DNA of 64,000 nt from Eledone cirrhosa (Eukaryota), in NCBI GenBank assembly GCA_964016885.1, contig OZ024742.1, positions 306,280,001 through 306,344,000 on the forward strand, given 5' to 3'. The notes beneath the pieces were generated by a model, which was given only the letters and a program-made list of their open reading frames with translations, had not been told where the DNA came from and ran no database searches. Made by a program: the position numbers and the translations under genes. The first letter of the stretch is position 1, and each line of letters opens with the position of its first letter. Positions 18,580 to 64,000 of the stretch are shown one piece after another.

Positions 18580-18902
18580 ATAAATGACTTAAACTGAACT
18601 TTGATTATTGTAATCTCTATATAACTGCTCTGTAAAACAACTGATGTTATTACATTGAGCTATTTATCTTACTGGTAATAGGATAGTAATTAATGACTAT
18701 CTTTCACTATTTAGGGTTTGTGTATATATAATATATTACCATTAAAGGTTTTATTGCATACATAACCATAAATAGTACCCTTAATACTATATATATATAT
18801 ATATTGCTCAAGGAAACAGCACATCACCCGGTCCGAGAATAGAACTCAGAAACTTTCGATTGCAAGCCCAATGCTCTAGCCACTAAGCCATGCGCCTTAA
18901 CA

Positions 18903-19048
<146 letters not shown>

Positions 19049-19270
19049 AAGGCGCATGGCTTAGTGGTTAGAGCATTGGGCTTGCAATCGAAAGTTTCTG
19101 AGTTCTATTCTCGGACCGGGTGATGTGCTGTTTCCTTGAGCAAGACACTTTATTTCACGTTGCTCCAGTTTACTCAACTGTAGAAATGAGTACCGGACTG
19201 CCCGCCCACCCAGTGGGATGGCATTATCTTATGGCTAAAACAGCACGACGTGCTGTAACCAGCGGCGCTG
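19049..19270 (+). mobile_element. tRNA-derived SINE (family B); its first ~100 bp are duplicated inverted at 18804-18900
   Basis: ggcgcatggcttagtggttagagc A-box, B-box-like gagttctattctc, ccttgagcaagacacttt..tgctccagtttactcaactg core; 3' end uncertain. Confidence 0.75.
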
Positions 19271-25402: not shown

Positions 25403-25444
<42 letters not shown>

Positions 25445-27563
25445 GTGAAGACAAACATAGAATATTCGAAAATATTCTGTATGTTTATAATAAACATTTT
25501 GAAGACCTAATCGCTATAGAATAGAATACGTCACGTATTACAATTTGAGATTCTCGATAAAAGCAAGGGAAGTAACCTACGCGTTTCATTCTTATTAGAA
25601 ATCATCAGGATTACATATCCAATGCTTTTATCGAGAATGACACAGCTAGAGACTTATAGAATACTTAGCTGTGTACAGGAACTGGTTTGAAAGAGCGGTA
25701 GCCGGTCCGGCAGAAATTAGAATTTGGATTTAATGCTCTGAAATAGCGATATATATGTGAAGACAAACATAGAATATTCGAAAATATTCTGTATGTTTAT
25801 AATAAACATTTTGAAGACCTAATCGCTATAGAATAGAATACGTCACGTATTACAATTTGAGATTCTCGATAAAAGCAAGGGAAGTAACCTACGCGTTTCA
25901 TTCTTATTAGAAATCATCAGGATTACATATCCAATGCTTTTATCGAGAATGACACAGCTAGAGAATTATAGAATACTTAGCTGTGTACAGGAACTGGTTT
26001 GAAAGAGCGGTAGCCGGTCCGGCAGAAATTAGAATTTGGATTTAATGCTCTGAAATAGCGATATATATGTGAATTAGAATTTGGATTTAATGCTCTGAAA
26101 TAGCGATATATATGTGAAGACAAACATAGAATATTCGAAAATATTCTGTATGTTTATAATAAACATTTTGAAGACCTAATCGCTATAGAATAGAATACGT
26201 CACGTATTACAATTTGAGATTCTCGATAAAAGCAAGTGAAGTAACCTACGCGTATTTTCGAATATTCTATGTTTGTCTTCACATATATATCGCTATTTCA
26301 GAGCATTAAATCCAAATTCTAATTTCTGCCGGACCGGCTACCGCTCTTTCAAACCAGTTCCTGTACACAGCTAAGTATTCTATAAGTCTCTAGCTGTGTC
26401 ATTCTCGATAAAAGCATTGGATATGTAATGCTGATGATTTCTAATAAGAATGAAACGCGTAGGTTACTTCCCTTGCTTTTATCGAGAATCTCAAATTGTA
26501 ATACGTGACGTATTCTATTCTATAGCGATTAGGTCTTCAAAATGTTTATTATAAACATATAGAATATTTTCGAATATTCTATGTTTGTCTTCACATATAT
26601 ATCGCTATTTCAGAGCATTAAATCCAAATTCTAATTTCTGCCGGACCGGCTACCGCTCTTTCAAACCAGTTCCTGTACACAGCTAAGTATTCTATAAGTC
26701 TCTAGCTGTGTCATTCTCGATAAAAGCATTGGATATGTAATCCTGATGATTTCTAATAAGAATGAAACGCGTAGGTTACTTCCCTTGCTTTTATCGAGAA
26801 TCTCAAATTGTAATACGTGACGTATTCTATTCTATAGCGATTAGGTCTTCAAAATGTTTTTTATAAACATACAGAATATTTTCGAATATTCTATGTTTGT
26901 CTTCACATATATATCGCTATTTCAGAGCATTAAATCCAAATTCTAATTTCTGCCGGACCGGCTACCGCTCTTTCAAACCAGTTCCTGTACACAGCTAAGT
27001 ATTCTATAAGTCTCTAGCTGTGTCATTCTCGATAAAAGCATTGGATATGTAATCCTGATGATTTCTAATAAGAATGAAACGCGTAGGTTACTTCCCTTGC
27101 TTTTATCGAGAATCTCAAATTGTAATACGTGACGTATTCTATTCTATAGCGATTAGGTCTTCAAAATGTTTTTTATAAACATACAGAATATTTTCGAATA
27201 TTCTATGTTTGTCTTCACATATATATCGCTATTTCAGAGCATTAAATCCAAATTCTAATTTCTGCCGGACCGGCTACCGCTCTTTCAAACCAGTTCCTGT
27301 ACACAGCTAAGTATTCTATAAGTCTCTAGCTGTGTCATTCTCGATAAAAGCATTGGATATGTAATCCTGATGATTTCTAATAAGAATGAAACGCGTAGGT
27401 TACTTCCCTTGCTTTTATCGAGAATCTCAAATTGTAATACGTGACGTATTCTATTCTATAGCGATTAGGTCTTCAAAATGTTTATTATAAACATACAGAA
27501 TATTTTCGAATATTCTATGTTTGTCTTCACATATATATCGCTATTTCAGAGCATTAAATCCAA
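25445..27563. repeat. Palindromic tandem array of a 312-bp hammerhead-containing unit (retrozyme / non-autonomous PLE-like): ~2.6 units on - (25445-26253), ~4.2 units on + (26254-27563)
   Basis: CTGATGA at 26431, 26743, 27055, 27367 (period 312); TCATCAG at 25602 and 25914; units nearly identical; (TA)n on both flanks. Confidence 0.92.
26737..26779 (+). ncRNA. Canonical minimal type I hammerhead (representative of 6 copies in the array)
   Basis: gtaatc-CTGATGA-t ttct aata agaa t-GAAA-cgcg-TA-ggttac; stem I extended by ttctcgataaaagca/tgcttttatcgagaa. Confidence 0.88.
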
Positions 27564-28008
27564 ATATATATATATATATATAAGTATTTGTACAGGTGTG
27601 TCAGTTTAAGTACCACTTTGTGCCAGTATGTAGTTCTAGGTAGATGGGAGAGACAGAGAATGAGGGGAGTCTGGTGAAGGACTAGATACATTGAGACAAA
27701 GAGGGTGAGAGAAACAAGAAAGAGGAAGAGTAGAGCATATGCTATATGTTCTACAAAACTGAGTCTCCAAATATAAGTACATAGTTTTGTCTTCCTGTGT
27801 TGTATATAATCCCTTTCGTTCATATCTAGTGACCACTTAATTCAGTCGGAAAAGATTTCTTTTCCCACAGATATCAAACTCTACTCTGTCTTAAGGTAAA
27901 CACAGTGAAGTACTACAAGAAGTAATAAGTTATGCAAGACAATGTGTGTGAGATAAATTGAGTAAAAGAAAGATATGAGAAGAGTCAGATAGGGAGATAT
28001 ACCTATCC

Positions 28009-62647: not shown

Positions 62648-63332
62648 AGAGAGATACCTTTGTACAAACATGAATACATGTATACATGCATACACAATAA
62701 CATATTTGCATACAAACACATTTTTTTTTATATCTGCGTCTAAAAGCATATATATATATACATATATATATACATATGTGTGTGTGTCTATATGTGTGAG
62801 TGTATCTGTGTGTGTGCGCGTGTGTGTGTACATTTGTTTTGTTTCACTTTATGTGCTTTTTATCATTCTGTGAATGTGATTGTGCGTGCATCCGCCTTTA
62901 TGAATTTGACATAAGTTCACGACCAAATACAAAAGATAGCCATAAACCATCTTCTGTTTGACCTTTCTGCTTATAGTTTGGATAGAAGCAATATTTTTTC
63001 TCAACACTTGGTCCTTACTGACTTCTTCTGACATCAAGTGTGTTTTCAGCTTTTGACTAACTTCCAACTATTGATAGCACGCCAAGTCAAACATGAACCA
63101 AGAATATTTCAGCGACTGATGTATCGAGAATGTCGGATGCATTGTATATGTTACTTTCCTGTATCAAACAAATACACTTCTGTCATAATAGATATAATGC
63201 CCAGTGTTACAAGTCGGCTTTTAAATTGGAGGTGCTACGATTAAAAGTTAGCTAAGCGTTCGTACCCTGAAACAGAAAGTAATGATATACAGAACAATGC
63301 ATATAGCGTTCAATTATATATACTGATTGGTA

Positions 63333-63822
63333 CTGATTGGTACTTATCAAAGCCAAGTACTCCACCTGTCTGCTGAAAATTATGAATGTTTGATTCTTAT
63401 AGAATTCTAGTAATAATCAGGAACTGATTATACAGAGCGGTTGCCGGTCAAGCAGAAATTGAAAATTAGAATTGGCGCTCTGAAATAGCGATATATATAT
63501 ATAAATGTATATATAGTGTATTTTGCAATACACTTATGCATAATTAAAAATATTTCGAAGACCTTACGCTATTGTTTTAGAGTAGTGACAGTCTCACTTA
63601 CTTTAAATTTTCATCAAACAAGATGAGATAAAGCTGACAGAGCTCTGTTTCGTACTAATTGGTACTTATCAAAGCCAAGTACTCCACCTGTCTGCTGAAA
63701 ATCATGAATGTTTGATTCTTATAGAATTCTAGTAATAATCAGGAACTGATTATACAGAGCGGTTGCCGGTCAAGCAGAAATTGAAAATTAGAATTGGTGC
63801 TCTGATATAGCGATATATATAT
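63333..63822 (-). repeat. ~1.5 tandem copies of a 322-bp HHR unit homologous to the 312-bp array unit
   Basis: tacttatcaaagccaagtac at 63341 and 63663; shares caggaactg..agagcggt.gccggtc..gcagaaatt..gctctgaaatagcgatatat with 25677-25755. Confidence 0.85.
63632..63676 (-). ncRNA. Hammerhead ribozyme with U3-A8 core (UUGAUAA)
   Basis: Minus strand: ggct-TTGATAA-gtac caatta gtac-GAAA-cagagctctg-TC-agct. Confidence 0.78.
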
Positions 63823-63937
63823 ATATGAATACAGGTACACATATATATATGTACGTATCAAATTAGGCTGCTCAGCCGTTAATTTTCATAAGGAAAGTAT
63901 ATACTTTCGAACGTTCAACCATCTGGCAGAAGGGTAT

Positions 63938-63980
63938 ACGGTGCTGATGATAGCTAAGAAGCTTAAAACTAGTACATCGT
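63938..63980 (+). ncRNA. Degenerate minimal hammerhead (G12A)
   Basis: acggtg-CTGATGA-tagc taagaa gctt-AAAA-ctag-TA-catcgt. Confidence 0.6.
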
Positions 63981-64000
63981 TCCTGTGTCAGTGTTGAACA

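Follow-up and report, generated by a model that had tools for sequence, protein, structure and literature searches.

What two tandem repeats have kept and what they have changed is the question raised by a 64,000-nucleotide (nt) stretch of the Eledone cirrhosa genome (assembly GCA_964016885.1, contig OZ024742.1, positions 306,280,001 to 306,344,000 of the forward strand), referred to below as the window. The window holds a 322-bp repeat unit at 63,323-63,812 and an array of a 312-bp sister unit at 25,437-27,565, which share several short blocks and carry hammerhead ribozymes of dissimilar sequence. The first-pass annotation proposed that the ribozyme of the 322-bp unit had either been swapped or had diverged under structural selection, and that the conserved blocks outside it mark a second functional signal, a promoter or a reverse transcriptase (RT) recognition site. 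The element with the 322-bp unit is a decayed insertion of an abundant non-coding hammerhead repeat with the insertion anatomy of a Penelope-like element (PLE), and the shared blocks form a predicted pseudoknotted RNA domain that probably docks a borrowed Penelope-type RT and sets two internal start sites.

The element consists of one and a half copies of the unit on the minus strand, the partial copy being identical to the full one at 161 of 167 bases.

63,491-63,812, minus strand: full 322-bp unit of family A, a non-coding unit of a Penelope-type retrozyme, recognised by its period and its dispersed relatives
63,323-63,490, minus strand: partial second unit, broken off within stem II of the hammerhead, where 10 bp are duplicated; this end is tailless and atypical

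A period of 322 bp is too short to encode an RT, in keeping with retrozymes devoid of long terminal repeats (non-LTR retrozymes), which consist of short tandem units that are non-coding and carry a type I hammerhead apiece. The locus has a single complete hammerhead, as the second copy breaks off in stem II, and so falls short of the at least two consecutive complete hammerheads that mark an active element (Li et al. 2026), which are present at other loci of the family such as L021 and L328. With one complete hammerhead, and with its other flank lying against a different hammerhead repeat, the copy is a remnant. That adjoining repeat is a tandem array of ~500 bp units (63,829-64,000 of the window; 1-1230 of locus L140) with a CUGAUGA core at 63,944 and the next cores 509 and 493 bp further on; a 32-bp inverted piece of it (63,829-63,860) meets the AT run on the 5' side of the element. 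No Rfam family reaches its gathering score over the element, and permissive settings return only weak HH9 hammerhead matches (E values of 1-4).

Family A is dispersed in the genome, with 2,195 candidates, and the 29 best other loci among the 40 scored are 93-96% identical; each genome search scored its best 40 candidates, so that the samples are biased. Tracing of divergent copies yields seven colinear families, namely A (322 bp), B (310-312 bp), C (~315 bp), D (~327 bp), E (~316 bp), F (~332 bp) and G (~322 bp). A unit alignment of 73 rows was made after six of the 169 distinct units had been discarded as rearranged or short. The 312-bp family is younger, its copies being 98-100% identical, and family A includes a young 316-bp subfamily (L328, with six near-identical tandem units, and L329). 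An eighth sister family, resembling F and G, is seen at L364 (239-575 and 1942-2218), where it shares a single AT tract with two Penelope-like termini in a nested arrangement. All five blocks that had been named as common to the 322-bp and 312-bp units are found on the minus strand of the element. The block is not a product of chance, as exact matches to a 27-nt pattern taken from it number 17,953 in the genome, against none for the reversed control, and a wider box pattern gives 20,365 matches, again with a control of zero. The statement that the sister unit keeps the body does not hold beyond these boxes, since the remaining body is identical to that of the window's 312-bp unit at only 85 of 181 positions (47%).

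The anatomy of the insertions shows where these blocks lie. Thirty family-A loci display variable 5' ends, partial tandems and inverted arms, which together with a tail are listed as PLE features in the accessible part of PMC8557442; 5' truncation, partial tandems and an inverted 5'-truncated arm are thus seen at the level of the family, of which the window copy is an atypical member. The insertions are flanked by (TA)n, as judged by eye and uncounted, in keeping with the (TA)n bias of Neptune/Naiad-type elements. The 3' ends fall in two fixed regions.

63,491-63,508, minus strand: region of fixed 3' end 1, in the internal AT run just before CGCTAT, where the (TA)n target blurs the exact base
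63,465-63,475, minus strand: region of fixed 3' end 2, the close of the ~34-nt tail, ~25 nt after CGCTAT and within the loop of helix P2 (below)

Among the 256 terminal ends counted within 190 nt past the GGTC box, 137 lie at end 1 and 105 at end 2, with 14 elsewhere. The two regions thus take up 242 of the 256 and are seen in all seven reference sets, covering families A-F. The tail measures 34 nt in family C, in which the start is unblurred, which agrees with the 30-40-bp tail that PLEs carry, usually at one end. Moreover, among 62 two-armed insertions there are 54 whose arms end differently, one at each fixed end, so that only one arm is tailed (p = 7e-10). The 312-bp array is itself a two-armed insertion, with a tailed plus arm, a minus arm that stops at end 1 and a 45-bp internal duplication at 26,027-26,118.

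A close parallel is provided by Poseidon, an element of Anolis carolinensis, for which the available text of PMC11167929 describes a PLE protein that in vitro cuts and extends both strands and starts internally at two sites, the distance between which equals the tail, and which requires RNA 3' of the starts. The two internal starts 30-40 nt (one tail) apart, the AT-rich target, the extension of both strands and the need for RNA 3' of the start all correspond to what is seen or proposed in the present case. Poseidon differs in being autonomous, with its start in an AC-rich stem-loop inside an open reading frame (ORF), whereas the element described here is non-coding.

Both fixed ends are enclosed by a predicted RNA fold that runs across the junction between units and is built largely from the shared blocks.

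63,430-63,574, minus strand: whole predicted pseudoknotted domain, across the unit junction; 141 bits with model R1, the window row having been included in model building
63,567-63,572, minus strand: 5' strand of helix P1, ATAGCG, pairing with CGCTAT at 63,490-63,485
63,560-63,563, minus strand: 5' strand of the pseudoknot, GGTC, pairing with GACC at 63,449-63,446
63,515-63,553, minus strand: two terminal hairpins in the P1 loop
63,434-63,481, minus strand: helix P2, AGAGC (63,481-63,477) with GCTCT (63,438-63,434), supported by covariation in family F
63,454-63,442, minus strand: hairpin P3, whose loop holds the pseudoknot strand, supported by covariation in family F

P1 encloses the GGTC strand, the two hairpins and end 1, P2 encloses end 2 and P3, and the GACC of the P3 loop pairs back to GGTC. 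The first terminal hairpin is mutated in the window copy and missing from family G. The pseudoknot reads GGTC:GACC in families A, B, C and E, GGCC:GGCC in D and GGCT:AGCC in F and G. Within families A-E the helices hardly vary, D alone showing a single compensatory change, and this would by itself be weak evidence. P1, P2, P3 and the pseudoknot were drawn from these five families before the sequence of family F was read, and in F 16 of the 54 paired columns differ, 14 of them making seven doubly changed pairs that are all Watson-Crick (permutation p = 2e-5). Six of the seven lie in P2, P3 and the pseudoknot, including two P2 and two P3 pairs, and one of the seven had already been seen in D. 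Two pairs added after F (98-151 and 130-136 of alignment A3) each change on one side only, and one extra P1 pair differs on both sides in F only after a manual register shift, P1 being left out of the wider count. The latter is made over 37 rows, taken from 117 junction stretches after removal of the mislabelled or rearranged ones, in which 91.7% of cells pair compared with 29-43% in slid controls and 64 cells are doubly changed compared with 17 in shuffles. Family G (nine junction copies in 20 loci) keeps GGCT:AGCC and changes one further P2 pair; a 5'-truncated and tailed copy of this family, detected by model R1, lies at 2,540-2,700 on the plus strand of the window.

These comparisons support the view that most of the shared blocks belong to an RNA structure that covaries and lies at the fixed 3' ends, as would fit recognition by an RT. 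The proposal of a second functional signal therefore finds support, although it splits into two, the second part being the ttctataag block as a putative TATA remnant. Two other candidates were rejected, as a CAG/CTG hairpin at cagttcctg fails across families (67% paired) and the idea of the shared box as a scrambled hammerhead finds, by eye, no CUGA or GAAA core pieces. As a separate observation, the AT-rich DNA upstream of U2 genes (L277, L279, L319, L320) weakly resembles the terminal-hairpin region of families C and E (uncorrected p of 0.003-0.02 among 30 tests), and L319 has TCTGTATAAT in common with families A and C; both likenesses may be due to chance.

The ttctataag block is where the alternative of a DNA-level signal has to be weighed.

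63,718-63,726, minus strand: TTCTATAAG, candidate TATA remnant, suggested by the spacing of the host U6 genes
63,396-63,404, minus strand: second copy of the same candidate

According to this alternative the shared blocks would be mainly an internal promoter, composed of a U6-type box and a TATA, by which each unit transcribes the next. In the host, an ATGC(A/T)AAT box lies at -77 to -79 and a TATA at -30 of three distinct U6 loci. Family F has a similar layout, carrying TATGCAAATGAGG; of its 16 rows in which a TATA was located, 14 have the TATA 43-46 nt further on. Family G has the same upstream box and D a variant. A pyrimidine-purine step follows the TATA at 30 nt in families A, C, D and F and at 29 nt in B; in the window it is the C/A step near 63,693, 30 nt after TTCTATAAG. 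The block is also retained in families A-E even where its hairpin is absent, with the TATA mutated in the reference copy of E. Against such a promoter, the 12 bases of the upstream box are missing from families A, B, C and E, so that the box found 47-49 nt before the TATA in host U6 genes has no counterpart in family A, and shuffled sequences match U6 upstream DNA as well as family A does. Nor do 5' ends cluster at the predicted start (12 of 305, with ~10 expected), and the units contain T4-T6 runs that could stop RNA polymerase III, whereas host U6 ends in T7 or more. The promoter, furthermore, fits ttctataag only, the other blocks covarying as pairs up to 120 nt apart in a manner that a DNA promoter leaves unexplained. 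As an account of the shared blocks as a whole it is therefore improbable, and ttctataag may be regarded, with low confidence and from its sequence context, as what is left of the TATA of a U6-type promoter, of which only the older sisters have a complete version.

A second alternative accepts the fold as real and assigns it another role, such as circle stability, ligation or help to the hammerhead, with the ends being set by AT microhomology. End 1 does lie in an internal AT run that matches the (TA)n target, end 2 follows AAT, and retrozyme circles are generally highly self-paired (PMC7229834, accessible text). Microhomology sits poorly, however, with the sparing use of other AT-rich sites of the unit (the 14 of 256 ends that fall elsewhere), and the rule of one tail per insertion requires a geometric constraint. 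The boxes are also conserved in letters as well as in pairs, unlike the freely drifting helices elsewhere in the unit. Another role for the fold is hence unlikely.

With docking of an RT as the preferred reading, the life cycle of the element may be pictured as follows. The domain would fold across the unit junction, either in a circle or in a transcript exceeding one unit. A Penelope-type RT-endonuclease would bind it and nick both strands of a (TA)n tract, one nick serving to prime at end 1 and its counterpart at end 2, ~34 nt downstream, and the two resulting 5'-truncated complementary DNAs would be joined head to head. The hammerhead, acting as a dimer through its palindromic stem III, would cut transcripts to monomers or circles, and since selection acts on its fold alone, its letters would drift faster than those of the docking domain.

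Several results weigh against this reading. The end of the window copy itself falls outside both fixed ends, and the terminal-end count is confined to the 190 nt after the GGTC box. The covariation goes back to a small number of lineage events, most of which sit on the single branch leading to F and G; the exact letters predicted for these two families were partly wrong (the seed copies being mutated), even though pairing held. Mean pair probabilities of P1 and P2 reach ~0.5 for family A and 0.1-0.2 for old copies of F, and the 316-bp subfamily has two C-A mismatches in P3, which is thus not strictly needed. The predicted cut site shows no excess of 5' ends (4 of 305 within 4 nt, with ~10 expected), so that cleavage has no genomic footprint, and hammerhead mutants leave insertion in vitro unaffected in the Poseidon system (PMC11167929, available text). 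Finally, no autonomous partner was found, as none of 70 GIY-YIG loci (337 kb; 150 scored of 10,596 candidates), searched with blastn, a hammerhead scan, model R1 and a geometry-only descriptor, has the domain as its own terminus. The search gave separate insertions (L092, L364) and six descriptor matches that do not have the box letters.

The genome is rich in RT-GIY-YIG elements, several of them with similar tails and hammerheads. Autonomous examples (L141, L144, L115 and relatives) end in (TA)n, with reading frames of up to 1,096 amino acids (L143), and some carry U3-A8 hammerheads (UUGAAAA, UUGAUAA). The L144 family has two 3' ends ~45 nt apart, and what appears by eye to be the 3' part of a GIY-YIG Penelope-like ORF lies at L140 1261-2050, just past the ~500 bp array.

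The other half of the question concerns the hammerhead. The features described by the first-pass annotation, a UUGAUAA core with a U3-A8 pair, a palindromic stem III and a GUC site, are all present in the window unit.

63,628-63,676, minus strand: minimal type I hammerhead, with stem I, UUGAUAA core, 4-bp stem II and palindromic stem III
63,672-63,666, minus strand: UUGAUAA core (U3-A8), as read from the letters
63,665-63,652, minus strand: stem II
63,651-63,636, minus strand: GAA, 12-nt palindromic stem III and GUC site
between 63,636 and 63,635, minus strand: predicted cut, from the position of the motif
63,608-63,701, minus strand: extended helix I around the hammerhead (arms 63,701-63,682 and 63,627-63,608), supported by covariation

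Stem I of the window hammerhead has 4 bp, and the 3' arm of its extended helix I is mutated; across families 9 of the 14 pairs of this helix are changed on both sides. The core is retained in 41 of 43 family units, and the core with GAAA and the UC site in 38 of 43. The perfect 12-nt palindrome, with a self-duplex energy of -20.1 kcal/mol, is not a constant of the family, being found in 8 of the 43 units, with a one-mismatch form in a further 15. The U3-A8 core with G12 A13 A14, the A15.1-U16.1 pair, the palindromic helix III and the short helix I are those of the minimal hammerheads of PLEs. The bulge between A9 and 10.1 and the 7-8 bp helix II of that class are absent, as the 4-bp stem II of family A opens directly on a G-C pair.

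This hammerhead had been said to differ completely from that of the 312-bp unit, yet the two are colinear, occupy the same position, have alignment gaps in stem III only and are 48% identical (26 of 54 positions). Divergence between the two units is clearly not uniform (p = 9e-7). The contrast, however, is between the two boxes, identical at 62 of 79 positions (78%), and everything else; the boxes were picked for being shared, yet a comparison of families C, D and E also places them among the best-conserved parts. Divergence of the hammerhead does not exceed that of the rest of the unit (p = 0.88), and it is a hairpin 3' of the ribozyme that has diverged most, with 7 of 36 positions identical. 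Over 58 rows all five stem I pairs, all four stem II pairs and the 3-8 pair change on both sides, the latter being U-A in 39 rows and C-G in 17, and over the whole unit 367 cells are doubly changed compared with 134 in shuffles. The covariation asked of the UUGAUAA ribozyme is thus there, and it bears out divergence under structural selection.

Against a module swap, for instance by template switching between co-mobilised RNAs, the two hammerheads are bridged by intermediates, including two copies with a C-type body and U3-A8 (L187, L204), one in which an A-like body and a long stem III go together with a C3-G8 core (L330), and families D and E, which combine a B-like stem I, as in the 312-bp unit, with U3-A8. 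The trees of body and ribozyme, made with 33 rows that exclude the two C-body U3-A8 copies, show the same split of A+C from B+D+E, with support of 97-98 in the Shimodaira-Hasegawa-like approximate likelihood ratio test. On a whole-unit tree of six families, with F as outgroup, the 3-8 pair has to change twice, and the grouping A+B is rejected (p = 0.022). In favour of a swap, the branches between families are longer in the hammerhead region than in the body, and the ribozyme-only tree (92 columns) rejects neither A+C (p = 0.38) nor A+B (p = 0.31) once F is included. The U6-type box, present in D, F and G and absent from B, E, C and A, also implies, on the best tree, either several losses or a single recombination. 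Taking these points together, a module swap as the origin of the 322-bp hammerhead is very improbable, and a swap from an unrelated donor is largely refuted. Recombination between close sister families is possible, because the ribozyme-only tree is weak with the distant family F in it. The best reading of the aligned families is that the hammerhead has probably drifted in place through compensatory changes.

How much of this is new can be judged from the known systems. The element class and the U3-A8 core (PMC4209133) are already known. The metazoan non-LTR retrozymes described in the accessible text of PMC7229834 (Cervera and de la Pena 2020) and bioRxiv 10.64898/2026.07.22.740005 (Li et al. 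2026) are like family A in having ~300-bp non-coding tandem units with one type I hammerhead each and thousands of dispersed copies, and have been proposed to be non-autonomous PLE derivatives. For these retrozymes circular RNA and cleavage have been demonstrated, whereas both are predicted for family A. As far as the available text of the two accounts goes, they contain no fixed 3' ends, two-armed insertions or structured RT-start domain. Similarly, the accessible portion of PMC4209133 describes minimal PLE hammerheads, among them a Schistosoma mansoni variant with ~1,300 matches in which U3-A8 replaces C3-G8, as in family A, and which likewise have a short helix I and a palindromic helix III for dimer folding and vary strongly among families within one genome. 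Family A departs from them in its 4-bp stem II, which opens on G10.1-C11.1 and has neither the bulge nor the 7-8 bp helix, and in its long extended helix I.

The swap idea fails. The newer part is the second signal, which is a real one and most readily interpreted as a pseudoknotted RT-start domain. No description of a structured RT-start domain in retrozymes was found in the openly accessible literature (main texts, with supplements and subscription journals outside the scope), and the word pseudoknot is absent from the main texts of both PMC7229834 and PMC11167929. A pseudoknot beside the RT start is described for the DRT2 non-coding RNA (PMC12039810), as here, although this is an analogy only. 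The domain of the present element is a long-range knot across a repeat junction, unlike the topology of the DRT2 and telomerase RNAs. In telomerase RNA, a pseudoknot lies beside the stretch where the RT starts. The RTs of PLEs and of telomerase share an ancestor, according to the accessible part of PMC8557442.

Elsewhere in the window, two inverted tRNA-like stretches around a microsatellite (18,833-19,114), scoring just above the Rfam cut-off, are probably the heads of tRNA-derived short interspersed nuclear elements.

How PLE enzymes choose their RNA and start within it, and how animal retrozymes become DNA, are open questions for which there is one in vitro system. The present superfamily, with more than 20,000 units matching one box pattern, adds a covariation-backed RNA structure around both starts together with natural compensatory variants, and a hammerhead whose 3-8 pair flips within one lineage. 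It is tentatively suggested, as a generalisation that falls somewhat short of an even chance, that Penelope-type RTs recognise a conserved pseudoknotted domain that holds two single-stranded starts side by side, one for each nicked strand. If this is true, a docking domain would explain both the PLE tail and the two-armed insertions, the 145-nt RNA would be a portable mobilisation signal for retrozymes, and PLEs would have a counterpart of the template-pseudoknot layout that is found in the RNAs of telomerase-like RTs.
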